A stretch of 64,000 nt of DNA from Alphaproteobacteria bacterium (GTDB lineage: Bacteria > Pseudomonadota > Alphaproteobacteria > UBA828): assembly GCA_022820945.1 (NCBI GenBank), contig JAJEEP010000165.1:12442-76441 (forward strand), written 5' to 3'. The notes under the pieces were generated by a model. The model searched no databases, was not told the origin of the DNA, and was given only the letters and a program-made list of their open reading frames with translations. The position numbers were made by a program, and so were the translations under genes. Positions within the stretch are counted from its first letter, which is position 1, and the number at the start of each line of letters is the position of its first letter. Below are positions 1-54,528 of this stretch, in pieces.

Positions 1-330
1 CCGGTGCAAAGACCGCACCCGCCGATCCTGCTCGGCGGCGAGTCCGTTCACACCATGCGCCGGATCATGGCGTTCTGCTCCGGCTGGTTTCCGCGCGGCC
101 CGCTGCTGCCTGACCCTGCAGACGGCATGGGCAGGCTCCGCGCCGCTGCCGAGGAAGCCGGGCGCGACCCCGCGACGGTCTCTGCGACTGTCTTCGGCGC
201 CAAGCCCGAAGAAGGCTATCTTGATGCCTGCCGGGAGGCCGGGATGGACCGTGCGCTGTTGATCCTGCCGCCGGAAGGGCGCGACGGGGTGATGCCGGTC
301 GTCGACCGCTACGCGGCCCTCATCGGCTGA
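1..330 (+). CDS. Luciferase-like (LLM class, flavin/F420-dependent) oxidoreductase, C-terminal fragment; 5' end outside the window
   Basis: The reading frame is open at the window edge. The tail (PPILLGGES...FCSGWFPRG...) resembles the C-termini of LLM/F420-dependent oxidoreductases. Stop at 328-330. Confidence 0.55.
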   Translation, partial: PVQRPHPPILLGGESVHTMRRIMAFCSGWFPRGPLLPDPADGMGRLRAAAEEAGRDPATVSATVFGAKPEEGYLDACREAGMDRALLILPPEGRDGVMPVVDRYAALIG

Positions 331-1801
331 GCGGACGCCGGCCGAGGTGGGCCGGAGTCAGCGAGCGGAAGGCCTCTCTCGCAGCCTCGGCGCCCAGAGC
401 GCCCCAGAGCGCGCCGCCGAGCACGGCCCCGAGCGCACCCCACGGCTTCTGTCCCGCGAGCGGCTGCGGGGCGCCGCGCAAGCCCTTGACGCGGACCTTG
501 AACGATTCGGCCGGCGCGGGCATGGGGAATTGCGTGGTCTTCAGGCTGTAATCGGCCCGGTCGAGGTCGAGGTCGACCTCGTGCAGGACGGTCGCCATGG
601 TGGCGGCGATCTGCACCTCGGCGAAGCCGTTGCCGAGACAGCGATGGGGGCCGAGGCCGAACGGCGCGTAAACGTAGGGCTGCTTGTGCTCCGCCCGCTC
701 CGGCGTGTAGCGGTCGATGTCGAAGCGCTTGGGCTCGGGGAAGAACTCCGGCAGGTAGTGCGGCACGGCGGTGGCGATGATTAAGCGCTCGCCGGCGGGA
801 ATGCGATGGCCCGCGAACTCGAACGAGTTGGCGGCGGTGCGGATGAGCATCGGGGTCACCGGATACATCCGCATGGTTTCCATGGCCGCACGATGCGTCG
901 CGTCCATCTCGCGCAACGCCTGCTCCGCCGGTATGTCGCCGGCAAGCAGGGCATCGGCCTCCTCCCGCACCTTCGCCAGCACGTCCGGGTGACGGAGCAG
1001 CGCGTACAGCATGAAGGCGGAGGTGCCCGCCACCGTGTCCAGCGCCGCGACGAAGGGGCCCATCGCCGCGATCTTCAGGTCCGCCTCGGGAAAGAACTTC
1101 GGGTCAGCGTCGTGCAGGTCCAGCAGGTCGTCGATCAGGTCGGGCTCTGCGCCGTGGCGTTCGCGCATCGTGCCGGAGTGGCACTCGATCACCTCGTGGT
1201 AGAGCTTGTCCATCTGGGCGGAGGCGCGTCGGAAGCGCGGCGACCAGCGCACGTAGGGGCCGGGGACCAGTGTGGCCGAGAGCAGCCCGTGAACGTAGCG
1301 GACCAGATCGTCATTGTAGGGGCGCGGCGAAACGCCGGCCACCAGGGTGCCCACCTGGTCGGTGACGATCCGCTGCAAGGCCGGCACCGCGGGCATGGGT
1401 CGCGAGTGCGGCCACGTTGCGATCTCCCGGCGGGCGATGTCGACGAGGCCGTCGATGTGCTCCACGGCGTACTCGCGGGAATAGCCCCGCCGTAGCGTGC
1501 GGCGAAACGCCGCGTGCTCGGGCCCGTCGGCACTCAGCATGGACCGCGCGGCGCCGAACCAGGCATTGAAGCCGCTCCAGAACTCGAACGAGCGCACGTG
1601 CTTCGTGCCCTCCCGCGCGAGGAAACGGTTGGCCTCCATCCCGGCCAGCACGGTGAAGCGGCGGTTGAGCAGCCGCATGCCGTAGACCGGCCCGTGCTCC
1701 AGGTAGCTGTCGGTGAGGAAGGCGCGCATGTCCCGCGCCATGTCGAAGGCGCTGCCGACGACCGGCAGACCGCGCGCAAGCGGTATCGTCGAGGTGGCCA
1801 T
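320..1801 (-). CDS. Cytochrome P450 with an extra Gly/Ala/Leu/Trp-rich C-terminal tail
   Basis: Haem-thiolate loop FGLGPHRCLGNGFA and an EXXR-type region (AAMETMRMYP). I chose the ATG at 1801 (MATSTIPLARGLP...), which has a purine-rich stretch upstream. The track ORF extends to 1888, but that part is Arg/Gly junk. Confidence 0.9.
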   Translation of the reverse strand: MATSTIPLARGLPVVGSAFDMARDMRAFLTDSYLEHGPVYGMRLLNRRFTVLAGMEANRFLAREGTKHVRSFEFWSGFNAWFGAARSMLSADGPEHAAFRRTLRRGYSREYAVEHIDGLVDIARREIATWPHSRPMPAVPALQRIVTDQVGTLVAGVSPRPYNDDLVRYVHGLLSATLVPGPYVRWSPRFRRASAQMDKLYHEVIECHSGTMRERHGAEPDLIDDLLDLHDADPKFFPEADLKIAAMGPFVAALDTVAGTSAFMLYALLRHPDVLAKVREEADALLAGDIPAEQALREMDATHRAAMETMRMYPVTPMLIRTAANSFEFAGHRIPAGERLIIATAVPHYLPEFFPEPKRFDIDRYTPERAEHKQPYVYAPFGLGPHRCLGNGFAEVQIAATMATVLHEVDLDLDRADYSLKTTQFPMPAPAESFKVRVKGLRGAPQPLAGQKPWGALGAVLGGALWGALGAEAAREAFRSLTPAHLGRRPLSR

Positions 1802-1996
1802 CTCCCAACCCTCTGCGGTCGGTCGTGCCCCTGGCCCTCGTCCTGCGGGGTGGGCGGGCCGCCGGGTGCCGCCGCCTGCTCCTATCATGGGGTGGGCGGC
1901 GTCCGAATTCCACCCTTTCCGCTATGCCGGCCCGGACTGGTAGAAGGGCGCTCGCGCGTGCTATAGGCGCGCGCCGTCGTCAGGGAGAGGGGCGAG

Positions 1997-2335
1997 ATGA
2001 ACGTGTCGATCGAGCGGTATGACAACGTGTTGGTCGCCGGCGTGAGCGGGCGGATCGATCCGAAAAGCGCCGGGTCGCTCCAGACTACCATTACCGATGA
2101 ACTCCGGAATGGCGACCAAGCCGTCATCCTGGATTTCGAGCAGCTCGCCTACATCGGCAACGTCGGCGTTCGTGCGCTGCGGATTACCGCCAGAATCCTT
2201 CGAGACCGTGGCGTCAGCCTGGCGGTATGCGCGCCCCAAGGTGTCGTTGCCGCAGTCTTCTCGGGCAGTGGCGTGGACAGGCTCATTTCGGTTTACCCGA
2301 CTCAGGGCGCCGCGCTTGAGGTCCTTAGCGGCTGA
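1997..2335 (+). CDS. STAS-domain protein (anti-sigma-factor-antagonist fold), no phosphorylatable Ser at the canonical position
   Basis: 112 aa with the SpoIIAA/STAS pattern (RIDPKSAGSLQTTI...AVILDFEQLAYIGNVGVRAL...). GGGAGAGGGG Shine-Dalgarno upstream of the ATG at 1997. Confidence 0.8.
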   Translation: MNVSIERYDNVLVAGVSGRIDPKSAGSLQTTITDELRNGDQAVILDFEQLAYIGNVGVRALRITARILRDRGVSLAVCAPQGVVAAVFSGSGVDRLISVYPTQGAALEVLSG

Positions 2336-2542
2336 CACGGCGCCCGGCACGACGATCCCCGCGTTCCAGCAATTCGGCTATGCCGGTCGCGCATTGTTGA
2401 TTGTCAGTTGATCGTCCGCGGGCTTGGCACGCGCTATGATCGTTCGTATCGTTCCGCCCCGTCCGGTTGCGGGGACTGGGCAAGGACATGAGGTTTCCCA
2501 CGGGGGCCCAGAGTGGCGCCCGCTCTTTAGGGGGTTTGGAGC

Positions 2543-2755
2543 GTGGACGCAGCACGGATCGTCGTCGAAGTCCTGCAGTACTACGGCTACATCGGGCTCG
2601 CCGTCGCGGCCGCCTTTCTCCTGTTCGGCATCGAGCGAGTGGACCCGCGCGCGCACCGCACCTATACCTTCCGGCCGCTCCTAATCCCCGGCTGCATCGT
2701 GCTCTGGCCGCTGGTGATCGCCCGCTGGGTCGCGGCCGAGCGGCAGCGCGGCTGA
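2543..2755 (+). CDS. Small hydrophobic protein (70 aa, about 2 TM), first gene of the Rieske/FMN cluster
   Basis: GTG start preceded by GGAG. Two hydrophobic stretches (YIGLAVAAAFLLFGI, LLIPGCIVLWPLVIA). Only 10 nt separate it from the next ORF. Confidence 0.45.
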   Translation: MDAARIVVEVLQYYGYIGLAVAAAFLLFGIERVDPRAHRTYTFRPLLIPGCIVLWPLVIARWVAAERQRG

Positions 2756-2765
2756 CGTCTTCGCC

Positions 2766-2945
2766 ATGCTGCGTCGGCACCGCACCACCCACGCCTACAT
2801 GTGGAAGGTGCTCGCCATCTTCCTGCCCGCGATGCTGATCGCAGCCCTCGCCATTCGCCAGCACGGGCCGACGGAGAAGACGGCCGTTCAGGTCGAGAAG
2901 CCCGCTCCGGAGGCCGAGGCGCCTGCTGCCACGGCGGAAGAGTAG
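2766..2945 (+). CDS. Small membrane protein (59 aa), below the ORF-track length cut-off
   Basis: I translated it by hand: MLRRHRTTHAYMWKVLAIFLPAMLIAALAIRQHGPTEKTAVQVEKPAPEAEAPAATAEE, with stop TAG at 2943-2945. It has one TM helix and sits between two closely spaced genes (gaps of 10 and 14 nt). Confidence 0.35.
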   Translation: MLRRHRTTHAYMWKVLAIFLPAMLIAALAIRQHGPTEKTAVQVEKPAPEAEAPAATAEE

Positions 2946-2959
2946 GGGGCGGCCGAGCG

Positions 2960-4042
2960 ATGAGCGTGCGTTACGCGCCGGTCGGCTGGAACCGCAACAA
3001 GATCATCTACGACGTCGCGGTGCTCGCCGCCGCCGTCGCATTCATTCTGCTTTACATCAAGATCGCGCCGGGCTTCCAGGACGTCACAAAGCCGACCAGC
3101 GGGGCGATCCTGCGGGCGCAGGCCTTCGGCACCTGCGCCTTCCTGATGCTCACCTTTGTCCTCTGCATCGGCCCGCTGGCGCGGCTGGATACCCGCTTCC
3201 TGCCGCTGCTCTACAACCGCCGGCACTTCGGCGTGATCACGTGCGCGGTGGCGTTCACACACGCGGCCAGCATCGTCAGCATCTATTACTCGTTCAGCCC
3301 GCTGAACAAGTACGTCGCCGTGCTTGCGAGCAACACCAGTTACGACCGCTTCCTCGGCTTCCCGTTCGAGACCTTCGGCATCTTCGCACTCTTCCTGCTG
3401 CTGGTGCTCGCGGCGACGAGCCACGACTTCTGGCTCAGGTTCCTGACTCCGTCGGTCTGGAAGGCGATTCACATATCGATCTACGTGGCCTATGCGGCGA
3501 TCGTCTGCCATATCGCGCTCGGCTCACTGCAGGCGAAGCAGAGCCCGCTGCTGGCCGTCATCGTGGGTTTGAGCGTCGTCCTGGTCACCGGCCTGCACCT
3601 CGTCGCCGGGCGGATCGAGCGGCAGAAGGATCGGAATACCGCCGAGAGCGCGGCCGGGAGTACCGACGAGGAGCCCTGGGTCGTGGCGGGCAACGTGGAC
3701 TCCGTGCCTGACGGCCGCGGCATCGTCGTGCCGCTGGACGGCGGCGAGCGGGTCGCGGTGTTTCGCTACGGCGACAAGCTGTCGGCGCTCGCCAACGTCT
3801 GCGCCCATCAGAACGGGCCGCTCGGCGAAGGGCAGATCATGCACGGTTGCGTGACCTGCCCGTGGCACGGCTTCCAGTACCGGCCCGAGGACGGCTGCGC
3901 GCCGCCGCCCTTCACCGAGAAGGTCGCGACCTACCGGCTCAAGCTCGAGGGCCGGCGGATCCTGCTCGACCCACGGGCCAACGAGCCCGGCACCTATGTC
4001 GAGCCCGTGCGCATCGCTCCCCCGAGCGTGACGGAGGCGTAA
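2960..4042 (+). CDS. Ferric-reductase/MsrQ-like six-TM (dihaem-b type) domain fused to a C-terminal Rieske [2Fe-2S] domain
   Basis: Internal ATG at 2960 of track ORF 2801..4042. Six hydrophobic helices carry conserved His residues (RRHFGVITCAVAFTHAA, ATSHDFW, IHISIYVAYAAIVCHIAL). Rieske motif CAHQNGPL...CPWHGFQY. Confidence 0.8.
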   Translation: MSVRYAPVGWNRNKIIYDVAVLAAAVAFILLYIKIAPGFQDVTKPTSGAILRAQAFGTCAFLMLTFVLCIGPLARLDTRFLPLLYNRRHFGVITCAVAFTHAASIVSIYYSFSPLNKYVAVLASNTSYDRFLGFPFETFGIFALFLLLVLAATSHDFWLRFLTPSVWKAIHISIYVAYAAIVCHIALGSLQAKQSPLLAVIVGLSVVLVTGLHLVAGRIERQKDRNTAESAAGSTDEEPWVVAGNVDSVPDGRGIVVPLDGGERVAVFRYGDKLSALANVCAHQNGPLGEGQIMHGCVTCPWHGFQYRPEDGCAPPPFTEKVATYRLKLEGRRILLDPRANEPGTYVEPVRIAPPSVTEA

Positions 4043-4043
4043 A

Positions 4044-4832
4044 ATGGCAGGCCGCGTGCCCGACTTCGGCTTTTTCGTCGGCTACCTGAACAGCGTGCCG
4101 CGCCCGCTCGCCATCTTCCTGGTCGCGGTCGCCGCCCTGCTCGTGGGCAGCATGGCGGGCCTCGGGTACGCGCTCGGCACCAACGTGAACGACCCCGGCG
4201 ACGGCACGTTCGCCCGCAAGCTCGGCAAGCAGGAGATGACCGGGGTCCTGCTGGAGAAGCCCTATCCGATTCTGCGCGTCCGCCCGGACGCGAAAAATCC
4301 CGAGGCGCGCACGGTCATGCTGACGGTGCCGGGCAAGCGCAGCGTCAAGCGCCGCGGCCGCAAGCTCTTCGACCAGCTCGTCGACGTGAAGGGCTTCATG
4401 TTCCAGCGCGGCGACATCGACATGCTGCAAATCCAGGGCAAGAACTCCCTGCAAGCCGTCGAGACCGGTGAAGGTGAGCCGCCGCCCAGCTTCACCCCGG
4501 CAGCCCCGGAACCGCTCGGCCGCTGGCGGCTGATCGGCGAGATCTGCGACAGCAAGTGCCATCTGGGCGCCATGCGGCCTGGCGACGGGCTCGCGCACAA
4601 GGCTTGCGCCAATCTCTGCATCTCTTCCGGCGCGCCGCCGATCTTCGTCACGGCGGAGGAAGGCGCGGTAGAAGGCGAGACCTTCTTGCTGATGGCCGAT
4701 CAGGACGGCGGTCCGCTCCCCGACCACTTCGGCGACTACGTGGCGATCCTCATCCAGCTCGAAGGCGAGGTCGAACGCCTCGACGACCTCCTGGTCTTCA
4801 AGGTCGATATCGACGCGGCCAAGGTGTTCTGA
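4044..4832 (+). CDS. Membrane-anchored hypothetical protein with a C-x3-C-x15-C-x3-C motif
   Basis: The start lies 1 nt after the upstream stop. N-terminal TM segment (PLAIFLVAVAALLVGSMAGLGYAL). Cys cluster EICDSKCHLGAMRPGDGLAHKACANLC. I recognise no family. Confidence 0.65.
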   Translation: MAGRVPDFGFFVGYLNSVPRPLAIFLVAVAALLVGSMAGLGYALGTNVNDPGDGTFARKLGKQEMTGVLLEKPYPILRVRPDAKNPEARTVMLTVPGKRSVKRRGRKLFDQLVDVKGFMFQRGDIDMLQIQGKNSLQAVETGEGEPPPSFTPAAPEPLGRWRLIGEICDSKCHLGAMRPGDGLAHKACANLCISSGAPPIFVTAEEGAVEGETFLLMADQDGGPLPDHFGDYVAILIQLEGEVERLDDLLVFKVDIDAAKVF

Positions 4833-4835
4833 GCG

Positions 4836-5075
4836 ATGAAGCGAGTCGCCTGGATTATCGTCGGCGCGATCGTGACCGCAGGCCTCGGCTATGCCTCCTA
4901 CTGGGTCTATCTGGAGGTGCAGCAGCAGGTTCGCGGCACGCTCATTTCAGGCTTCGGCATCTTCGTCGGCGTCATGGGTGTCTTCGCCATGCTCGGCGTG
5001 GCCCACATCGTCTTCAGGCAAGCCGAACGCCTGCTGCGCAAACGCGGAGTTTCCCTAGCCGACGCAGGCGATTAA
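4836..5075 (+). CDS. Small two-TM membrane protein (79 aa)
   Basis: The start lies 3 nt after the upstream stop. Two clear hydrophobic helices (VAWIIVGAIVTAGLGYASYWV; ISGFGIFVGVMGVFAMLGVAHIV). Confidence 0.5.
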   Translation: MKRVAWIIVGAIVTAGLGYASYWVYLEVQQQVRGTLISGFGIFVGVMGVFAMLGVAHIVFRQAERLLRKRGVSLADAGD

Positions 5076-5140
5076 GGCGGCGCTTGAGCATCGACAAGAC
5101 GCCGTGCGGGTCGCGCGCGGCGGCGGAAGGCAGGGTTCCC

Positions 5141-6751
5141 ATGAACAAGATCGCGATCAAGACGCTCGACGAATTGGAAGACCGCCAGCCGGCCTACGCG
5201 CTGGTCGGCGAGGTCGATCTTTGCGTCGTTCGCTACGACGACAACGTCTCGGTCTTCTACGGCCGCTGCCTGCACCGGGGCGCGTTGATGGCCGACGGCT
5301 ACGTCGACGGCGAGAACCTGATCTGCGGCGTGCACTACTGGGACTACCGCCTGGACACCGGCGTCAGCGAATACAACAACGCGGAGATCCTGCCCAAGTT
5401 CGCGTCGTGGATCGAGGACGGCCAGGTCCTCGTCGATGCGGACGAGATCGGCGCCTGGGAAGAAGAGCACCCGCAGCCCTTCAAGCGGGACGAGTATCTC
5501 GGCCTCTATGCCGACACGCACCCCGCGCCAGAGGAGCCCCACGTCGGGCTGATCCAGGGCTACGCCAGGGACGGGCTCAGCAAGACCGGCCATCACGGCG
5601 TGGTCGTGGCCATGGGCGTGCCGCGTCAGGATCTACCGAGCTGGGACGACATTCAGTTCATCACCGCACAGCTCCACCGCATGCCGCACCTCGACGACGA
5701 GCCGGTCGGCACCGAGGTGGCGATCGGGCCCAATGCGCAGAAGCCGCTCACCCTCGAGATACCGCTCCTGGTCTCGGACATGAGCTTCGGGGCGCTCTCC
5801 GAGCCCGCCAAGGTCTCGCTTGCACGCGGCGCCGAGCTTTCCGGCACCGGCATCTGCTCGGGCGAGGGCGGCATGCTGCCGGAGGAGCAACAGGCCTGCA
5901 GCCGCTACTTCTACGAGTATGCCTCGGGCCGCTTCGGCTTCTCCTGGGACAAGCTGGAGACCGTGCAGGCCTTCCATTTCAAGGGCGGCCAGGGCGCCAA
6001 GACCGGCACCGGCGGGCATCTGCCGGGTAACAAGGTGAGAGGCAAGATCGCCGAGGTGCGGGGGCTGCCGGAAGGCTCGCCCGCAGTCTCGCCGCCGCGC
6101 TTCCCGGACTGGACCGACTGGCGCCAGGTGCGGGACTTCGCAGACGAGGTGCGGAGCCACACCGGCGGCATCCCGATCGGCTACAAGCTCTCGGCCCAGC
6201 ACATCGAGAAGGACATCGACGCCGCGCTCGAAGTGGGCGTCGACTACATCATCCTGGATGGGCGGGGCGGCGGCACGGGCGCGGCGCCGCTCATCTTCCG
6301 CGACAACATCTCGGTGCCGACCATCCCGGCCTTGGCGCGGGCGCGCCGCCATCTCGATGCGTCGGAGCGCGAGGACGTGACGCTGGTGATAACAGGCGGC
6401 CTGCGCAAGCCCGCCGATTTTGCCAAGGCGCTGGCACTCGGCGCCGATGCGGTCGCGGTCTCCAACGCCGCGATTCAGGCGATCGGCTGCCTCGGCATGC
6501 GCGCCTGCCACACCAACAACTGCCCGGTCGGCATCGCCACCCAGAAGCCGCATCTGACCGCGCGGATCGAGGTCGAGAAGTCGGCGCGGCGGCTGGCCAA
6601 CTTCTTCGAGGCGAGCGTCGAGCTGATGAAGATCATGGCGCGCGCTTGCGGCCATTCGCACCTGAATCAGCTTTCGCTCGACGACCTCGCGACCTGGAAA
6701 GAGGACATGTCCCGCCTCTCCGGCGTTGCCTACGGCGGCGTCGGGGGCTAA
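5141..6751 (+). CDS. Rieske [2Fe-2S] domain fused to a glutamate-synthase-type FMN/Fe-S domain (GltS-related protein)
   Basis: Internal ATG at 5141 of track ORF 4556..6751. Rieske motif CLHRG...CGVHYW. GltS FMN-domain signatures SDMSFGALS, GEGG, KGGQGAKTGTGGHLPG and DGRGGGTGAAP. Fe-S motif CLGMRACHTNNC (C-x5-C-x4-C). Confidence 0.85.
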   Translation: MNKIAIKTLDELEDRQPAYALVGEVDLCVVRYDDNVSVFYGRCLHRGALMADGYVDGENLICGVHYWDYRLDTGVSEYNNAEILPKFASWIEDGQVLVDADEIGAWEEEHPQPFKRDEYLGLYADTHPAPEEPHVGLIQGYARDGLSKTGHHGVVVAMGVPRQDLPSWDDIQFITAQLHRMPHLDDEPVGTEVAIGPNAQKPLTLEIPLLVSDMSFGALSEPAKVSLARGAELSGTGICSGEGGMLPEEQQACSRYFYEYASGRFGFSWDKLETVQAFHFKGGQGAKTGTGGHLPGNKVRGKIAEVRGLPEGSPAVSPPRFPDWTDWRQVRDFADEVRSHTGGIPIGYKLSAQHIEKDIDAALEVGVDYIILDGRGGGTGAAPLIFRDNISVPTIPALARARRHLDASEREDVTLVITGGLRKPADFAKALALGADAVAVSNAAIQAIGCLGMRACHTNNCPVGIATQKPHLTARIEVEKSARRLANFFEASVELMKIMARACGHSHLNQLSLDDLATWKEDMSRLSGVAYGGVGG

Positions 6752-6757
6752 CGCGGG

Positions 6758-7816
6758 CTAGAGGTTCTTCGCAAACTCTTTGTTTGCGGCCGGAATCTCG
6801 GGGATCGTGCCCAAATAGGCGTGTCGAGACATGTCGGGCGAGTACTTGCTCGCCGGGGGCTGGCGGCCCAGCGCTTCCGCCATGCTGCGGACGTGATGGG
6901 GCGCCGCGCCGCAACAAACCCCCAGATAATTGACGCCGATCGTCCGCGCGTCCCTGGTGAACTCGGCGATGTCGTAGCGGTTGCAGGCGAGGTTATCGAG
7001 CCCGGTGGGGAAGGCCCGCCCCTCCGGCAGGCAGGCGCAGTCCGGATCGCTCAATGAAAGGAAGATCGGCTCGTTCTCGGTGGTGCGGTAAGCCACGGGC
7101 AGCGCCGAGACGTGGCAGCTCACCGCCGCACGGATCGCCTCAAGCAGCGGCAGCATGGTCGCGGGGCCGCGCAGGCAGTTCAGCCCGACCACGTCCGCGC
7201 CCGCGTCTTCCAGACGTTTGCAAGCCTCGGCCGGGGTCAGCCCCTCGCGCGTATGGCCGTCGCGGAAGATGGCCAGATTGACGACCGCCGGTAGCCCGGT
7301 CTCCTGGATCGCCTCGAGAGCGAGCAGGGCCTCGCCGAGATAGGCGATCGTCTCGGCGACGAAGAAGTCCACGCCCTCATCGATGGCCCAGGCCACCTGC
7401 TCGTCGAACATGGCGCGGACGGTGCGGGCAGACTCGGCGTCCCCATCGACGAAGATGTTGGAGTTGCACACGTTGCCGGCGACCAGCGCGTCGCCTTCCT
7501 GTGCCACCGTCCGGGCGAGGCGGACGGCGACGCGGTTCATACTCTCGATCTCGCCTTCCCTGCCGATCAGCCTGAGCTTCTCGCGATGGGCGTAGTAGGT
7601 GAATGCCAGCATGACGTCCGAGCCCGCGCGCAGGAAGTCGCGGTGCAGCCGGATCACCGCGTCGGGATGTTCCAGCACCACTTCGGGCACGTAGGGGCCG
7701 GCGGTGAGATAACCGGCTCGCTCCAGTTCGAACAGATAGCCCTCGGCACAGATGACCGGCCCTGCCGCCAGCCGTTCGAGCAGACCCGATCCGCTCGGCG
7801 GTGAAGTGCTGGTCAT
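6758..7816 (-). CDS. Homocysteine S-methyltransferase family protein (betaine-homocysteine methyltransferase-like), paralogue 1
   Basis: 352 aa with a BHMT-like N-terminus (LLERLAAGPVICAEGYLFELERAGY...) and Zn-ligand Cys motifs GLNC and GVCCG. AGGAGA Shine-Dalgarno upstream. Confidence 0.85.
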   Translation of the reverse strand: MTSTSPPSGSGLLERLAAGPVICAEGYLFELERAGYLTAGPYVPEVVLEHPDAVIRLHRDFLRAGSDVMLAFTYYAHREKLRLIGREGEIESMNRVAVRLARTVAQEGDALVAGNVCNSNIFVDGDAESARTVRAMFDEQVAWAIDEGVDFFVAETIAYLGEALLALEAIQETGLPAVVNLAIFRDGHTREGLTPAEACKRLEDAGADVVGLNCLRGPATMLPLLEAIRAAVSCHVSALPVAYRTTENEPIFLSLSDPDCACLPEGRAFPTGLDNLACNRYDIAEFTRDARTIGVNYLGVCCGAAPHHVRSMAEALGRQPPASKYSPDMSRHAYLGTIPEIPAANKEFAKNL

Positions 7817-7879
7817 GCAAAACGTCTCCTCGTTCGAGATGGCAGCACGGCAGGGTACCGCGCACGCCGGCGATGGGTT

Positions 7880-8938
7880 CTACAGGTGCTTCGCGAAATC
7901 CTTGTATGCAGACGGAACCTTGTCCGAGGTGCCGTAGAAGGCATGCGTGGACATGTCGGGCGAGTACTTGCTCCCCGGCGGGCGGCGGCCGAGCGCCTCG
8001 GCCATGCTGCGGATGTGATGGGGGGACGCGCCGCAGCAGACGCCGAGGTAGTTGACGCCAAGCGCCTGCGCCGCCTTGGTGAATTCCTCGATCTCGTAGC
8101 GGTTGACGGTGAAGGGATCGAGCGCGGTGGGGAAGGGCCGCTCCCGCGGCAGGCAGGCGCAGTCGGGGTCCTCCAGAGACTGGAAGGAGGGTTGGTCGGC
8201 GGTGGTGCGGTAGGCCACCGGCAACGCGGACACGTGGCAGCTCACCGCCTCGCGGATGGGGCCGAGCAGCGGCAGCATGGAGGCCGGGCCGCGCGTGCAA
8301 TTGAGGCCGACCACGTCGGCGCCGGCGTCTTCCAGGCGCTTGGCCGCCTCGGCAGGTGTCAAACCATCGCGCGTCAGCGGGTCGCGGTGGATGGCGAGGT
8401 TGATTACCGCGCATTGGTCGGCTGCCTTGATCGCTTCGAGCGCGAGCAGAGCCTCACCGACGAAGGAGATGGTCTCGGCGACGATGTAGTCGACGCCTTC
8501 GTCGACGGCCCAGTCCACCTGCTCATCGAACATGGCGCGTACCTCGCGGGCCGAGTCAGGATCGCCGTCGACGTAGATGTTGGAGTTGCTCACATTGCCG
8601 GCGACCAGCGCGTCGCTCCCGGCCGCGGCCTCCCGCGCCAAGCGTAGCGCGGTGCGGTTCATCTCCTCCAGCGCACCCTCCTTGCCGATGACGCGGAGCT
8701 TCTCGCGGTGAGCGTAGTAGGTGAAGGCCAGCATGACGTCGGAGCCCGCGTGGAGGAAGTCGCGGTGCAACTGGGCAACGACCTCCGGATGGTCCAGGAC
8801 CGCCTCCGGCACATAGGCGCCGGCTGAGAGATAGCCGCGGCGCTCGATCTCGAACAGATAGCCCTCGGCGCAGATGACGGGCCCTGCCGCCAGCCGCTCG
8901 AGAAGACCCGCTCCGCTGGACAGTGCGGCGTCAGTCAT
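7880..8938 (-). CDS. Homocysteine S-methyltransferase family protein (betaine-homocysteine methyltransferase-like), paralogue 2
   Basis: 352 aa, collinear with paralogue 1 with no indels and about 70-75 percent identical by eye. It carries the same GLNC and GVCCG Zn motifs. GGGAG Shine-Dalgarno upstream. Confidence 0.85.
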   Translation of the reverse strand: MTDAALSSGAGLLERLAAGPVICAEGYLFEIERRGYLSAGAYVPEAVLDHPEVVAQLHRDFLHAGSDVMLAFTYYAHREKLRVIGKEGALEEMNRTALRLAREAAAGSDALVAGNVSNSNIYVDGDPDSAREVRAMFDEQVDWAVDEGVDYIVAETISFVGEALLALEAIKAADQCAVINLAIHRDPLTRDGLTPAEAAKRLEDAGADVVGLNCTRGPASMLPLLGPIREAVSCHVSALPVAYRTTADQPSFQSLEDPDCACLPRERPFPTALDPFTVNRYEIEEFTKAAQALGVNYLGVCCGASPHHIRSMAEALGRRPPGSKYSPDMSTHAFYGTSDKVPSAYKDFAKHL

Positions 8939-8950
8939 GTGTATCGCTCC

Positions 8951-9958
8951 CTATTGGCACTGGCCGGCCGGGCTGGGGTGCAGCGGTGAATCCTTCACCC
9001 GCCAGAGAAAGCGCCGCACGATATCGCCGTAGCCGGAGAACAGGAAGCCGCCGTTCTCAGCGAGCACCCGCTGCCGTTCCGCACGGTAGACATGGGGCAG
9101 GTCGTACCAGGCGATACCGGGCCGCTCGTGGTGGAGCGCATGGAAGTTGTTGCCGAGGAAGAGCAGTCTCATCACCGGTCCGGCCTCCACGATAGCCGTG
9201 CGCTGCGCCTGCTCCTCCGCAGGCCGATGCTCGTAATACGAGCGCAGCAGGATCAGCGCGGTGCCAGGATAGACGTAGAGCATCACGTAGGCCCAGAGCG
9301 GGATGCCGCAGACGACCAGCACCCAGACCAGCACCAGCGCCGTCAGCACCCCGTGCGTGGTCCAGATTTGGACGCATCCCGTCTCGCCTCGGACGAGCCG
9401 CGCGCCTTCCTCCCGCCAGAAGGCGAGATATGTAAGCGCCGGGCCGAGCAGCAGCCGGCCGACCAAGGTGTTGTGGACCCGGAGAAGGAACCGCCCGCCC
9501 GCCCCGAGCCGGCGCCAGTGTGCTGGCTCCACGTAGAAGCTCTCGGTATCGGCCCGCGGGTCCGTGAGGTGCGGCGTGGCGTGATGGCTGAGGTGGCGGC
9601 TGCGGTAGAGGGGGTAGGGCAGCCACAGCGCGACCGGCGCCATGGCGAGCGCGGTGTTGATCCCCTGCCGGCGTGTCGGATGGCCATGGATGATCTCGTG
9701 CTGCAGGCTGCCGTGCCAGCCGACCAGCCAGCCACCAAGCGGCAGGACCAGCCACCAGGGCAGCGCATGATGATACCAGGTGAGCGCCAGCCAGCCGCCA
9801 TAGACCGCCGCCGCCACGAGCCAGGTCGGCCCCTCGATCCGGCGCCAGAGGGCAGGGAGATCCGACCTTCCGAGGGAACTGTCGAGGTCTTGGTCCACGG
9901 TGACCCGGCTGCGGCGGCGACGACGATTCAATCTGCTGCCCGCCCGGCGGTGAAACAA
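8951..9958 (-). CDS. Fatty acid desaturase family protein (membrane di-iron His-box enzyme)
   Basis: Three His boxes (HEIIHGH, HLSHHAT, HALHHERP) and several TM helices. The start is uncertain: the track uses TTG at 9958, and a GTG at 9898 is an alternative. It ends 12 nt upstream of the BHMT paralogue 2 start. Confidence 0.8.
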   Translation of the reverse strand: MFHRRAGSRLNRRRRRSRVTVDQDLDSSLGRSDLPALWRRIEGPTWLVAAAVYGGWLALTWYHHALPWWLVLPLGGWLVGWHGSLQHEIIHGHPTRRQGINTALAMAPVALWLPYPLYRSRHLSHHATPHLTDPRADTESFYVEPAHWRRLGAGGRFLLRVHNTLVGRLLLGPALTYLAFWREEGARLVRGETGCVQIWTTHGVLTALVLVWVLVVCGIPLWAYVMLYVYPGTALILLRSYYEHRPAEEQAQRTAIVEAGPVMRLLFLGNNFHALHHERPGIAWYDLPHVYRAERQRVLAENGGFLFSGYGDIVRRFLWRVKDSPLHPSPAGQCQ

Positions 9959-11053: not shown

Positions 11054-12604
11054 TTAACCGATTGTTTCGAAAGAGAGCTTGCTGCCGAGCGCGCGTGCGA
11101 GCGCCTCTGCGGCCGTGCGCGCCTTGCCCGACGCAAGCGGCCGGTGCTCGGGCGCGAGCCTCAGCACCAGATGGCCCTCCTCGGCTACGATCTGAGAGCC
11201 GTCGAGCACCGCCGGCTCCCCGATGGAGAGCCGCTCCGCCAACCTGAGCGCGAGTCCGAGCGCTCTGGCCTCGGCGCGCACCGCTTGCGGCAGCACCCGG
11301 TTCACCGTCCGGCTGGCTGTGACCGGAAGGCGCGACTTGTAGCGGGTGGCCACCGCGAGCGCCAGAAACACGCGGCCCGCATGATCGATGCCGACGAAGG
11401 GGGCGCGCGAAATCCGCGCGAACGCATCGGCCGCGCGCAGATCGGGATGCTGGCGCCAGGCGATTTCGGAGAGAAACGCCGCCGCAGGCAGCATCTCCCG
11501 ATGCCCGGCAAGCGCCGGGAGCGTCGAGCGCCCCAGCCAGGAGGCGAGGGCCTCGGCATAGACCAGCGAGCGGCCGTCCCGCCGGGCGATCGAACGGCAG
11601 GCGTCGTGCAGCGGATCGTGCGCCCGCACCGCTGCGGGCAGACTGTCGAAGAGCAGGCCCTCGCGCAGGCCGAAGGCGGAGAACAGGACCTCGCCCGGCG
11701 CAGCGACCTTGAGCAATGCCTTGAGCGCGGACGCGCCGCTCGGCACGGTTGCGAGCCGCCTGGGCAACATCCCCTCCGGCCCCGGACGCAGCGTCGCGGG
11801 ATCGGCGGCTGCGAGCTCCTTGGTAGCCTCGCGCGCCTCGGCCGGCGTCATGCGATAGTGATGGACCACCGGGATGGGGTGCCGCTCGGCCGCCATGTGG
11901 AGCCGGGCCAGCGCCCGCCACGCTCCGCCCACGAGATAGACCGGCTCGCCACGCATCCGATCGAGCCAGGGCAACGCCTTGAGCCGTTCGGCCGCGAGCG
12001 CTACGCGGCGGCTTGGCGGCAGGCTGCCGAGGCGGAGCACACCCAGAGGCAGCGTCGCGTGCTCGGCGAGCCGGCCATTCTCCAGGCGGACCAATTCCAG
12101 ACTGCCGCCGCCCAGGTCCGCCATCAGCCCGCTCGCGCCGGGGAAGGCCGAGACCACGCCGAGCGCCGCGTAGCGGGCCTCCTCCTCGCCCGAGAGGACG
12201 CGGAGCGAGAAGCCGGTCTCGCGGGCGACCGCCTTGCGGAACCGTTCGCCGTCGCTGGCGTCGCGAACCGCTGCGGTGGTCACGGCGTCAAGCGGGCCGA
12301 CTCCGAGCGCGTCCGCTGCGGCCGCGAAGCGGCGCAACGCATCGAGGGCAGGCTCCACCGCGTCCGGCGCGAGCGTCCCGGTCTCGGCGAGCGTCGCTCC
12401 GAGGCCGCACAGCTCGCGTTCGTTGAAGACCGGCGCCGGCGCCCGCGTCAGCCCTTCGAACACCACGAGTCGGATCGAGTTGGAGCCGACGTCGAGCACG
12501 CCGTAGGGCGCATCCGCTACAGCCGCGGCGGGGAAACGCTCGGCCTCGACCGCGAGCGGCGCCGCGTCGGCCACGTGGCGGGTCTCCGCCAGTTGCTCCG
12601 TCAC
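11054..12604 (-). CDS. ppx: Exopolyphosphatase (Ppx/GppA family)
   Basis: Ppx/GppA N-terminus ([18 protein letters not shown]...ELCGLG...) and ADLGGGS. I chose the GTG at 12604, which overlaps the ppk stop (GTGA). The track ORF's longer N-terminus overlaps ppk out of frame. Confidence 0.85.
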
Positions 12605-14763
12605 CCGTCGCCCGGCTCGTCGCCGCCCGTGTTCGCCACGGCGAGCAGCGGCTCGCGTCGTGCCGTGCCGCGGCCCGAGAGCGACGGGTTGGTCATGAAG
12701 AAGCGGTGGGCGTTGAAGGGATCGCCGTCGGGACTCAGGCGGGAGAACGAGCCGTCGGTATCGAGCGTCCAGCTTTGCTCGTTGTCCCTGTAGTTGGCGG
12801 TCATGATCTGGTCGAGGATCTGCTCGTGTACCGTCGGGTTCTCGATCGGCACCATGAGCTCGACCCGCCGGTCGAGGTTGCGGCCCATCCAGTCGGCGGA
12901 CGAGATGTACACCTTGGCCTGGGGCGAGGGCAGGCCGTGACCGGCGCCGAAGCACATGATGCGCGAATGCTCGAGGAAGCGCCCGACGATGCTCTTCACC
13001 CGGATGTTCTCGGAGAGGCCGGGCACGCCCGGGCGCAAGCAGCAGATGCCGCGCACCACCAGGTCGACGGAGACCCCGGCGGCGGAGGCGGCATAGAGCG
13101 CCTCGATCACGTCGGGATCGACCAGGGAGTTGAGCTTCACCCAGATTGCCGCCGGCCGGCCGGCGAGCGCGTGGGCGATCTCTTCTTCGATCAGCTCATC
13201 GATGGCGGCACGCAGGCCGAGCGGCGCCACCGCGATCTTCTCGTAGCGTTCGGGCGACGCGCCGCCGGTCAGGTAGTTGAAGAGCAGCGCCGCATCGCGG
13301 CAGAGCGCCGGATCGCAGGTGAAGAACGAGAGGTCCGTGTAAATCGCGGCGGTGATCGGGTGATAGTTGCCGGTGCCGTAGTGGACGTAGCTGCGCAGTC
13401 CGTCGGCCTCGCGGCGGGCCACCAGCGACGCCTTGGCGTGGGTCTTCAGGTCCATGAAGCCATAGACCACCTGGGCGCCGGCGCGCTCCAGGTCCCGCGC
13501 CCAGCGGATGTTCGCGGCCTCGTCGAACCTAGCCTTGAGCTCGACCAGCGCGGTGACCGATTTGCCTGCCTCCGCGGCTTCGATTAGCGCGTTGACGATG
13601 GGCGAATCGTTGCTGGTGCGATAGAGCGTCTGCTTGATCGCGATCACGTCCGGGTCGCGCGCCGCTTGGCGCAGGAACTGCACGACCACGTCGAAGCTCT
13701 CGTAGGGATGGTGGACGACGATGTCCTTGGCCTTGATCGCGGCGAAGCAATCGCCGCCAAAGTCCCGGATGCGCTCGGGGAAGCGTGCGCGGTAGGGCGT
13801 GAACTCGAGATCGGCCCGGCCGCACTTGATGAGCATGGCCGTGTCCGCAAGCCCCAGAATCCCTTCGACCTTGACGACGTCGCGCCGGTCGACATGAAGC
13901 TGGTCGGCGAGGAAGTCCAGCATGCTCAAGGGCATTGTGGAGTCCACCTCGAGCCGGATGACGCTGCCGCGCCGGCGCCGCTTGAGCGCGCTCTCGAACG
14001 AGCGCACCAGGTCCTCGGCCTCTTCTTCCAGCTCGATGTCGCTGTCGCGGACCACCCGGAAGCGCCCCACCGCGTTCGGTGCGAAGCCGGGGAACAGCCG
14101 GTCGAGGTAAAGCTCCACCACGTCCTCCAGCGCGATGAAGCGGACCTCGCCCCGCTCGCCTTCGGGCAGGCGGATGAAGCGCTCCACCTGGCTCGGGACC
14201 CGCACGAGGGAGGGCACCAGACGCCGGGTGCCCTTCTCGACCAACTCCAGCGCCAGGCTGAAGCCCAAATTCGGAATGAACGGAAACGGGTGGGCCGGGT
14301 CGATCGCGAGCGGCGTCAGCACCGGGAAGAGCCGGTCGATGAAGTAGCTGTCAAGCCAGCGCCGTTCGTCGTCCCTGAGTCGATCGGCCGAGAGGATTGC
14401 GATGCCCGCATCGGCCAGCTCCGCGCGGAGTTCGAGCCAGCGCTCCTGCTGTTGGGCCATCAGCGCATTGGCACGCTCGTTGACGGCGCGGATTTGCGCA
14501 ATGGGGCTCAAGCCGTCCTGGGACGATTCGAGGATGCCCGCCTCGACCTGGCCGTGCAGGCCGGCCACGCGGACCATGTAGAACTCATCGAGGTTCGATC
14601 CCGAGATCGACAGGAAGCGCAAGCGCTCGAGCACGGGGTGGTCGAGGTTCTCAGCCTCTTCCATCACCCGCTCGTTGAAGGCGAGCCAGCTCAGCTCTCG
14701 GTTGACGAACTTGTCGGACGGCGCGAAGCTCTTCGCCTCGGCGGCCTGCTCGACCCTAGCCAT
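12601..14763 (-). CDS. ppk: Polyphosphate kinase 1
   Basis: 720 aa, full-length PPK1 pattern ([19 protein letters not shown]..., [19 protein letters not shown], two PLD-like C-terminal domains). Confidence 0.95.
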
Positions 14764-54453: not shown

Positions 54454-54528
54454 GGGCGCTTAGCTCAGGGGGAGAGCGCTTGCTTGACATGCAAGAGGTC
54501 GCTGGTTCAAATCCAGCAGCGCCCACCA
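54454..54528 (+). tRNA. tRNA-Val (anticodon GAC), CCA encoded
   Basis: Hand-folded cloverleaf. Acceptor stem GGGCGCT/AGCGCCC, D arm GCTC-AGGGGGA-GAGC, anticodon arm CTTGC-TTGACAT-GCAAG, variable loop AGGTC, T arm GCTGG-TTCAAAT-CCAGC, discriminator A, then CCA. Confidence 0.9.

Follow-up and report, generated by a model that had tools for sequence, protein, structure and literature searches.

A conserved ferric-reductase-Rieske membrane module of marine alphaproteobacteria and its probable link to Rieske-fused flavoenzymes

A cluster of six genes (g1-g6, positions 2543-6751) was analysed in a 64-kb stretch of DNA from Alphaproteobacteria bacterium (contig JAJEEP010000165.1); the whole stretch is called the window below. 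The six genes are a widely conserved membrane electron-transfer module of marine alphaproteobacteria, no component of which has a known function. The module probably uses Rieske [2Fe-2S] domains to connect a two-haem membrane protein with a glutamate-synthase-type flavoenzyme and, in other genomes, also with an enzyme that resembles pyruvate oxidase. In the preferred reading, to which a probability of about 0.5 is given, g6 would be a dehydrogenase that acts on glutamate or a close analogue and feeds the module, the acceptor being a site on the g4 protein or a quinone. An earlier description of the cluster as a transmembrane redox system, made from the letters alone (the original prediction), was essentially right on the core, the cofactor ligands and the novelty of the system, but incomplete: g6 is detachable, and in other genomes the system has a second client enzyme.

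Short names are used as follows: S1 (g1), S2 (g2), FRD-Rieske (g3; FRD, ferric-reductase domain), U262 (g4), S5 (g5), GLT (g6, Rieske-GltS) and Rieske-TPP (a Rieske-fused, PoxB-like thiamine pyrophosphate (TPP) enzyme). The terms module and core denote g1-g5. Coordinates of all features are listed in Table 1.

A conserved unit of four or five genes

The six open reading frames (ORFs) lie on one strand, and the gaps of 10, 14, 1, 3 and 65 nucleotides (nt) reported earlier were reproduced from the ORF coordinates. Ahead of g1, g3, g4 and g6 there are purine-rich stretches that resemble Shine-Dalgarno sites (GGAG, GGAGG or G-runs). The G+C content of the window is about 67%, so that long chance ORFs are frequent. 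Homologues of g1-g6 recur in the same arrangement in dozens of genomes and, judged by this conservation, all six are genuine genes and not high-GC chance ORFs. A hydropathy scan assigned 2, 1, 6, 1, 2 and 0 transmembrane (TM) segments to the products of g1 to g6, respectively. The Pfam scan agreed with the domain calls of the original prediction (Ferric_reduct and Rieske in g3, Rieske and Glu_synthase in g6), and the motifs quoted there (the Rieske boxes of g3 and g6, and C-x5-C-x4-C in g6) were all found. No Pfam family was matched by g1, g2, g4 or g5, and the NCBIfam matches of the cluster proteins were all sub-threshold (the MsrQ model for g3, the GltB model for g6).

For the neighbourhood survey, a collection of species-representative genomes (one genome per species) was scanned for relatives of U262; these were confirmed in at least 489 stretches, and 80 loci were retrieved. 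Together with two complete-genome neighbourhoods (Roseovarius rhodophyticola and a Roseibium), these made 82 loci. The FRD-Rieske gene was directly upstream of the U262 gene in 82/82 loci, S1 was upstream of FRD-Rieske in 79 and S2 was present in 64. The check on co-conservation thus supported the original prediction, although g5 was detected in just 44 of the 82 loci and g6 was within 10 kb of the module in 47, in several gene orders. Judged by gene order, the obligate unit is S1-S2-(FRD-Rieske)-U262(-S5), that is four or five genes, to which GLT and Rieske-TPP are facultatively linked. The organisms that carry the module include Roseibium/Labrenzia, Pseudovibrio, Roseovarius, roseobacters, Hyphomicrobiaceae and lineages of metagenome-assembled genomes (MAGs) near the window. 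The nearest relatives of the cluster (loci L003-L012 and L085-L089; protein P0002), with 85-97% protein identity, are uncultured alphaproteobacterial or Rhodospirillales MAGs.

The small proteins g1 and g2 are strongly supported as conserved subunits of the module. S1 has the conserved motif FL..GIDRV...ARG.Y.FRPLLIPG..LLWPLVL.RW (76 unique sequences). S2 combines a basic N-terminus (hR.aHa..W.vL...lP) with an acidic Pro/Ala/Glu tail. Both carry conserved charged motifs and have no family assignment. In Roseovarius, S1 and S2 are fused as one protein of 121 amino acids (aa). S5 has almost no conserved residues. A small gene at the S5 position was also present in L001, L002 and L166, distant loci included, and its product is likewise a 2-TM protein in the distant loci.

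Table 1. Features of the window and of the loci compared with it (coordinates without a locus number refer to the window; L numbers denote other loci)
Feature	Coordinates	Strand	Description
g1 / S1	2543..2755	+	70 aa, GTG start, small membrane protein, 2 predicted TM segments
g2 / S2	2766..2945	+	59 aa, single-pass membrane protein
g3 / FRD-Rieske	2960..4042	+	360 aa, six-TM Ferric_reduct domain and C-terminal Rieske domain
g4 / U262	4044..4832	+	262 aa, N-terminal TM anchor and body of ~215 residues
g5 / S5	4836..5075	+	79 aa, 2-TM peptide
g6 / GLT	5141..6751	+	536 aa, soluble; Rieske domain, linker of ~90 residues, glutamate-synthase-type FMN domain
FRD-Rieske-U262 fusion P0302	L166:10001-11752 and L167:3087-4838
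FRD-Rieske-U262 fusion P0369	L165:1066-2937
FRD-Rieske-U262 fusion P0373	L168:3479-5170
Rieske-TPP gene	L001:14055-16034, L002:11642-13618		not in the window; N-terminal Rieske domain and PoxB/pyruvate-oxidase-like TPP enzyme, ~659 aa
GLT-neighbour gene examples	L096:6225-7538, L002:8679-9929, L143:4174-7794		Na_H_Exchanger / MscK-like / DUF5996 loci
522-aa ORF	320-1888	-	cytochrome P450-like by eye
STAS-domain protein, 112 aa	1997-2335	+	PF01740
Tandem paralogous 352-aa ORFs	6758-7816, 7880-8938	-	first matches homocysteine S-methyltransferase PF02574; second belongs to the same ORF cluster
Fatty-acid desaturase	8951-9958	-	PF00487
XRE-type helix-turn-helix regulator, 287 aa	10061-10924	+
633-aa ORF	11054-12955	-	Ppx/GppA-type phosphatase-like by eye

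The two-haem membrane protein and its periplasm-facing partner

The hallmark of FRD proteins is a set of six TM helices with two His residues each in TM3 and TM5, spaced 12-14 residues apart, which hold two haems b by bis-His ligation (PMC3591440). The g3 protein matched Ferric_reduct (PF01794) above the cut-off (46.4 bits, cut-off 28, residues 57-181), has six TM segments and has His pairs in TM3 (H89/H101) and TM5 (H171/H184), as FRD-superfamily members do. The haem-ligating pattern expected by the original prediction was kept in 83/83 aligned sequences, and two histidines at the cytoplasmic ends of helices (H155 and H213) were likewise invariant. This profile and residue evidence strongly supports g3 as a six-helix FRD protein with two putative bis-His haem-b sites, an inner one at H89/H171 and an outer one at H101/H184.

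The C-terminal part of g3 matched the Pfam Rieske family (PF00355) with 52 bits, and its ligands (C281-A-H283 ... C300-P-W-H303) were invariant in 83/83 sequences. The distribution of Lys and Arg is biased towards an N-in/C-in topology (positive-inside rule), which places the Rieske domain in the cytoplasm; no twin-arginine motif was found ahead of TM6. With g6 devoid of TM segments, both Rieske domains of the cluster are predicted to be cytoplasmic. In the AlphaFold2 (AF2) model of g3 (predicted local distance difference test, pLDDT, 83.8), the Rieske part comes closest to the Rieske ferredoxins of dioxygenases (target-normalised TM-scores 0.83-0.88), and the Rieske boxes (C-A-H-Q-N-G and C-P-W-H) lack the disulfide cysteines of the bc1 type. 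A cytoplasmic, C-terminal cluster of the ferredoxin type, presumably of low potential, is strongly supported.

The NOX, FRE and STEAP proteins share with g3 the six TM helices, the bis-His pairs in TM3 and TM5, a cytoplasmic C-terminal input domain and an expected outward transfer of electrons. In g3, however, a Rieske domain (PF00355) takes the place of the C-terminal FAD/NAD(P)H dehydrogenase domain of NOX and FRE; the reductant must therefore come from other proteins. With the bc1 and b6f complexes the module shares a Rieske [2Fe-2S] cluster and a di-haem membrane cytochrome b, but the membrane fold of g3 is that of FRD proteins, unrelated to cytochrome b, and no cytochrome c1 or f is present. 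The Rieske protein of bc1/b6f (C-T-H-x-G-C and C-P-C-H) is periplasmic, whereas that of g3 is cytoplasmic, follows TM6, is of the ferredoxin type and has no extra disulfide cysteines.

The g4 gene starts 1 nt past the stop codon of g3. The U262 family comprises 1994 representatives at 50% identity, and its motif is D-x-K-C-x2-G-x-M-x-P-G-x4-H-x2-C-A-x2-C. Across 142 family representatives, D169, K171, C172, G175, M177, P179, H185, C188 and C192 were invariant. Three cysteines of the four-Cys motif named in the original prediction (C172, C188 and C192) accordingly stand, but the fourth (C168) was retained in just 50/142 representatives, and the family-wide set is Cys3 plus His and Met. The AF2 model (pLDDT 87.4) has one N-terminal helix followed by two beta-barrel domains (OB-like, oligonucleotide/oligosaccharide-binding). 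Its weak OB-fold resemblances (SSB, RPA, PriB, superantigens) were given no functional meaning.

Three divergent natural proteins (P0302, P0369 and P0373) were found in which FRD-Rieske and U262 form a single polypeptide, with U262 at the C-terminus of FRD-Rieske. P0302 occurs on two independent contigs, where it is flanked by small genes that match S1, S2 and S5 in size and position. These fusions argue for a physical complex of the two proteins. The body of U262 is predicted to be periplasmic because the fusions put its N-terminus on the side of the membrane where the cytoplasmic Rieske domain lies, and the positive-inside rule agrees with this orientation. Taken together, g4 is strongly supported as the obligate partner of g3, with a one-helix anchor and a two-barrel body whose Cys3/His/Met site faces the periplasm. 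At the P0369 locus (L165), a stand-alone NuoH-like gene (PF00146) directly follows the fusion gene.

A partner of this kind also admits another reading, in which the system serves a periplasmic purpose. The module would then reduce Cu(II) or Fe(III), a periplasmic protein or small molecule or, in the manner of NOX, oxygen. Its substrate would be bound or processed at the Cys3/His/Met site of U262, and g6 and Rieske-TPP would do no more than supply reductant drawn from abundant metabolites of the cytoplasm. Characterised FRD proteins do export electrons to Fe3+, Cu2+, O2 or MsrP; translation of U262 is coupled to that of g3, the two are sometimes fused, and U262 faces the periplasm; Cys, His and Met are typical ligands of soft metals, and C172, M177, H185, C188 and C192 are invariant; and the core is often found with no client gene nearby. 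Against this, no gene for a metal transporter, TonB system, chaperone or oxidase assembly was enriched near the module, and TonB-dependent receptor, FecCD, TonB and ExbBD matches were found in 0/82 loci. No Fur, Irr or RirA-type motif was enriched upstream, and the fold of U262 matched no solved metal-binding protein significantly. A periplasmic purpose is accordingly regarded as decidedly unlikely.

Along with the NOX, FRE and STEAP proteins, the known system nearest in mode of action is MsrPQ (YedYZ, the periplasmic methionine sulfoxide reductase of E. coli), where an FRD haem-b subunit is co-encoded with a periplasm-facing partner thought to receive the electrons. The differences are as follows: g3 scored 35 bits against the MsrQ model NF003831 (cut-off 130); U262 is a Sec-type anchored protein of unmatched fold and not a molybdoenzyme exported by the twin-arginine translocation (Tat) pathway; the conserved neighbours are solely S1, S2, U262, S5, GLT and Rieske-TPP, with no MsrP; and g3 bears its own cytoplasmic Rieske domain, the proposed donors being Rieske-fused flavoenzymes and not Fre or quinol. 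A survey from 2013 lists Rieske among the domains fused to bacterial FRD proteins (model M4) and assigns neither function nor partners to the fusion (PMC3591440), and a paper on Sec and Tat mentions YedZ just as a comparison (PMC5449189). A full-text literature search returned no publication on the system, in keeping with the earlier statement that no characterised system has this composition. The module is described here as FRD-based transmembrane electron transfer in which the input domain, the partner protein and the clients are all new.

The cytoplasmic flavoprotein g6

The g6 protein matched Rieske (41.6 bits) and Glu_synthase (PF01645, 297 bits) in Pfam. Its Rieske ligands (C43-L-H45 ... 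C62-G-V-H65) and its [3Fe-4S] cysteines (C450-x5-C456-x4-C461) were conserved in 47/48 sequences, and the closest sequence matches in the PDB were the flavin mononucleotide (FMN) domains of the large subunits of glutamate synthases (GltS; E 3e-33). From these ligands, g6 is strongly supported as a cytoplasmic enzyme with a predicted Rieske cluster, FMN and a [3Fe-4S] cluster. Among bacteria recorded as Roseibium, Roseovarius, Stappia and Silicimonas the g6 proteins share about 80% identity, which indicates strong selection. At least 8000 homologues were hit, and the search with g3 likewise gave at least 8000 candidates. Database names of the orthologues are generic ('glutamate synthase-related' or 'Rieske 2Fe-2S domain-containing'; in one case 'Archaeal-type glutamate synthase [NADPH]'), and no orthologue with a known, unrelated function was found under them. 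One homologue is deposited under the sponge Geodia barretti, and the closest relatives of the window may be sponge-associated.

In the alignment to Synechocystis Fd-GltS, g6 keeps the residues that correspond to E903, Q969, K972 and R992, whereas an invariant His (H293) stands at the position of Q978 and a Thr at that of E975. The four retained residues are those that we take, from the Synechocystis and Azospirillum GltS structures, to line the 2-oxoglutarate/2-iminoglutarate site.

That g6 might be the ordinary glutamate synthase (GOGAT) of the organism is suggested by the strong Glu_synthase match and by the archaeal-type name of one homologue. Domain content effectively refutes this identity: Pfam found no amidotransferase or GXGXG domain in g6, the match to Glu_syn_central was insignificant (E 0.0015, below the cut-off), and the GltB equivalog model scored 122.9 bits against a cut-off of 1047. 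No GltD-like gene was found in the cluster or among the conserved neighbours of the core and of GLT (the remaining genome was not searched), nor was a glutamine amidotransferase gene found in the window cluster or among the conserved neighbours. On this point, too, the original prediction had it right that g6 is not a glutamate synthase.

The likeness of g6 to the large subunit of GltS (ferredoxin-dependent GltS, Fd-GltS, or GltB) extends to the FMN barrel, the C-x5-C-x4-C [3Fe-4S] motif, the four residues named above and, in the case of Fd-GltS, a [2Fe-2S] redox partner, which in g6 is a fused Rieske domain and not a plant-type ferredoxin. Unlike GltB and Fd-GltS, g6 lacks the amidotransferase, central and GXGXG domains, has no GltD and carries the invariant His in place of Q978. 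A stand-alone FMN domain with a [3Fe-4S] motif is also found in MgsABC (as MgsB of N-methylglutamate synthase) and in archaeal-type split GltS, but the window cluster holds no ORF for an amidotransferase-like or GXGXG subunit, and the context of g6 is a membrane haem module or a PoxB-like enzyme and not glutamine or methylamine metabolism.

Linkage of the client enzymes to the module

In the Roseovarius rhodophyticola and Roseibium neighbourhoods, all six window genes were present in another order, together with a 659-aa Rieske-TPP gene. Rieske-TPP was within 10 kb of the module in about 29 of the 82 loci, and in Rhodobacterales GLT and Rieske-TPP enclose the module, all on one strand. Its product matched the NCBIfam pyruvate oxidase model PRK08611 (387 bits) and E. 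coli PoxB (PDB 3EY9, E 7e-66), and remained under every equivalog cut-off (best 387 bits against 742).

PoxB of E. coli (pyruvate:ubiquinone oxidoreductase, formerly 'pyruvate dehydrogenase [cytochrome]') and the pyruvate oxidases are the proteins most similar to Rieske-TPP, which, like PoxB, would feed electrons of 2-oxoacids to the membrane. Rieske-TPP differs in its N-terminal Rieske domain and in its C-terminus, the alignment stopping at PoxB residue 527/572, about 45 residues short. The missing region is presumably the lipid-binding segment of PoxB, and the shortfall fits a Rieske domain that replaces direct docking to the membrane. Oxidative decarboxylation of a 2-oxoacid is irreversible; Rieske-TPP can therefore only donate electrons. 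A tblastn search for Rieske-TPP in the window found none, only the Rieske part being matched, to g3. In the window lineage the operon consists of the module and GLT, with no Rieske-TPP gene within 64 kb; GLT would therefore have to exchange electrons with the module itself.

When metagenome contigs were scanned for GLT, 21 of the loci obtained extended for at least 6 kb to either side of the gene. The module was nearby in 8 of these, Rieske-TPP was immediately downstream of GLT in 11, and 6 had neither. Rieske-TPP and the module without GLT were found in L024, L070 and L072, so that every pairwise adjacency (GLT-module, GLT-TPP and TPP-module) was seen. Clustering of the ORFs around the core gave no consistent neighbour family beyond GLT and Rieske-TPP, save generic ABC ATPases. 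A tblastn search of 162 loci for other Rieske-carrying genes found none but one weak match (L104, E ~1e-4). The Rieske domains of g3, GLT and Rieske-TPP are mutually 26-33% identical. They are inferred to carry electrons between these proteins.

The adjacency could instead reflect co-regulation or chance, the Rieske domain of g6 serving an unrelated soluble reductase or oxygenase and the core drawing on a separate donor, such as the quinol that was at one time suggested for MsrQ. GLT often lies away from the module, many other loci have the core on its own, and the identity between the three Rieske domains is low. Yet the module, GLT and Rieske-TPP are adjacent in all pairings, in various orders and lineages; they are the only gene types among the conserved neighbours that carry Rieske domains; and no ferredoxin reductase or oxygenase partner is conserved nearby. 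We consider this explanation very unlikely.

The annotated conserved neighbours of GLT were Rieske-TPP, Na_H_Exchanger, DUF5996, an MscK-like channel and DUF1194. The Na_H_Exchanger gene (PF00999) was directly upstream of GLT in 21 loci, the MscK-like mechanosensitive channel was near it in 7 and the DUF5996 gene was downstream in 15. The exchanger and channel neighbours may tie GLT to osmotic or K+-glutamate physiology.

Direction of electron flow and proposed mechanism

The steps proposed are as follows. The g1-g5 proteins would form a membrane electron-transfer complex, with g6 as one soluble client. In g6, L-glutamate or a close 2-amino-dicarboxylate would be oxidised to the 2-oxo acid and ammonia, and the electrons would pass from FMN to the [3Fe-4S] cluster, to the g6 Rieske domain and to the Rieske domain of g3. 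They would then cross the membrane from the inner to the outer haem of g3 and reach their acceptor, the g4 site or a quinone, on the periplasmic side. The membrane potential would help this outward flow, as it does in characterised FRD proteins. Rieske-TPP would be a second client in many other genomes, as an electron donor only, and both clients together would convert glutamate to 2-oxoglutarate and on to succinate and CO2, with neither NAD nor CoA.

To our knowledge, all characterised FRD proteins (NOX, FRE, STEAP and MsrQ) move electrons outward to an extracytoplasmic acceptor. A dehydrogenase role of g6 is favoured because Rieske-TPP only donates, because flow through FRD proteins is outward, because inward flow would be uphill both in redox potential and against the membrane potential, and because the window lineage has no Rieske-TPP.

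The opposite direction was considered for g6 in the form of a TPP-driven, reductive synthesis of glutamate. Here Rieske-TPP would oxidise pyruvate or another 2-oxoacid and feed g6 from Rieske to Rieske, g6 would aminate 2-oxoglutarate with free ammonia, using neither glutamine nor NAD(P)H, and the module would be an overflow valve or an alternative partner. GLT and Rieske-TPP are the tightest gene pair (co-directional, gaps of ~10-60 nt), and 7 of the 11 well-flanked loci in which they are adjacent have no module nearby. The FMN domains of glutamate synthases normally catalyse a reduction, for which the Fd-dependent enzymes receive electrons from a [2Fe-2S] ferredoxin, and the residues that we take to form the 2-oxoglutarate site are kept in g6. 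The exchanger genes upstream of GLT (21 loci) and the MscK-like channels (7 loci) may also point to K+-glutamate osmotic physiology. On the other side, the operon of the window and its lineage holds GLT and the module but no Rieske-TPP gene, and feeding of g6 by the module would need inward electrons, against the membrane potential and uphill in redox potential. It would also be left unexplained why the transmembrane di-haem protein and its periplasmic partner are the most conserved parts. Reductive synthesis is therefore held to be unlikely.

Several points weigh against g6 as a dehydrogenase that feeds the module. The proposed direction of electron flow is purely inferred. In the cell, glutamate synthase FMN domains work reductively, and the Q978 equivalent of g6 is changed to His. 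Just 8/21 well-flanked GLT loci have the module nearby, and in one genome GLT is 0.93 Mb away from it. The FRD identity of g3 is drawn from the Pfam match and the His pattern, and the Foldseek matches of the g3 model fall solely on the Rieske part. The role of U262 as electron acceptor is a guess: no cofactor motif could be recognised in the protein, it lacks a Tat signal, and its fold gave no significant match, a Foldseek search of the g4 model against the PDB giving nothing at E <= 1e-3.

Flanking genes and regulatory sequences

A scan for promoters and terminators gave a single weak site, the only sigma-70-like promoter match in positions 1900-7000 (TTGGCA-17-TATCGT, 2424-2452, forward strand). 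It lies about 90 nt upstream of g1, and shuffled sequence yielded matches at least as readily. A direct repeat (GTTGAT-N5-GTTGAT) is located about 35 nt further upstream of this site. Upstream of the g1 homologues, the patterns for FNR/CRP, sigma-54, the RirA iron-responsive operator (IRO), the Irr iron control element (ICE), Fur and NtrC were as frequent as in the intragenic background, and no 8-mer was conspicuously shared. The Rfam and ARAGORN scan of the window gave one match, a tRNA-Val (GAC) at 54454-54528 on the forward strand. A link to iron uptake, prompted by TonB, receptor and FecCD genes at two distant loci, was rejected, since homologues of these genes were near the module in 0/82 loci.

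The tandem paralogous pair at 6758-8938 is immediately downstream of g6 and convergent with it; the pair is conserved just in close relatives of the window and not with the module elsewhere. On the other side of the cluster, the P450-like ORF and the STAS-domain protein are not conserved with the module in other lineages. At L083, an HTH_31 regulator gene directly precedes a stand-alone Rieske-GltS gene and differs from the XRE-type regulator of the window.

Significance

The module is widespread: the collection of species-representative genomes has at least 489 stretches with a confirmed U262 relative, the family amounts to about 2000 clusters at 50% identity, and the hosts are ecologically important marine alphaproteobacteria. 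In its widest form, which is possible but put forward tentatively, the proposal describes an unrecognised cytochrome b-Rieske complex, unrelated to bc1, that serves as a plug-in sink for flavoenzymes equipped with a Rieske "plug". Such a complex would allow a conversion of glutamate to 2-oxoglutarate and succinate that depends on neither NAD nor CoA, would export the electrons to a periplasmic Cys3/His/Met protein and would constitute a new branch of respiration or electron export.

If the proposal is true, it would add a new way of coupling the oxidation of central metabolites (glutamate and 2-oxoacids) to the membrane, and the stand-alone FMN proteins named 'glutamate synthase-related', a large orphan family, would for the first time be placed in a physiological context. 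The NOX/MsrQ superfamily would gain a new type of partner and a new electron-input domain. The system is a clean test case for electron transfer from protein to protein by way of fused Rieske domains.

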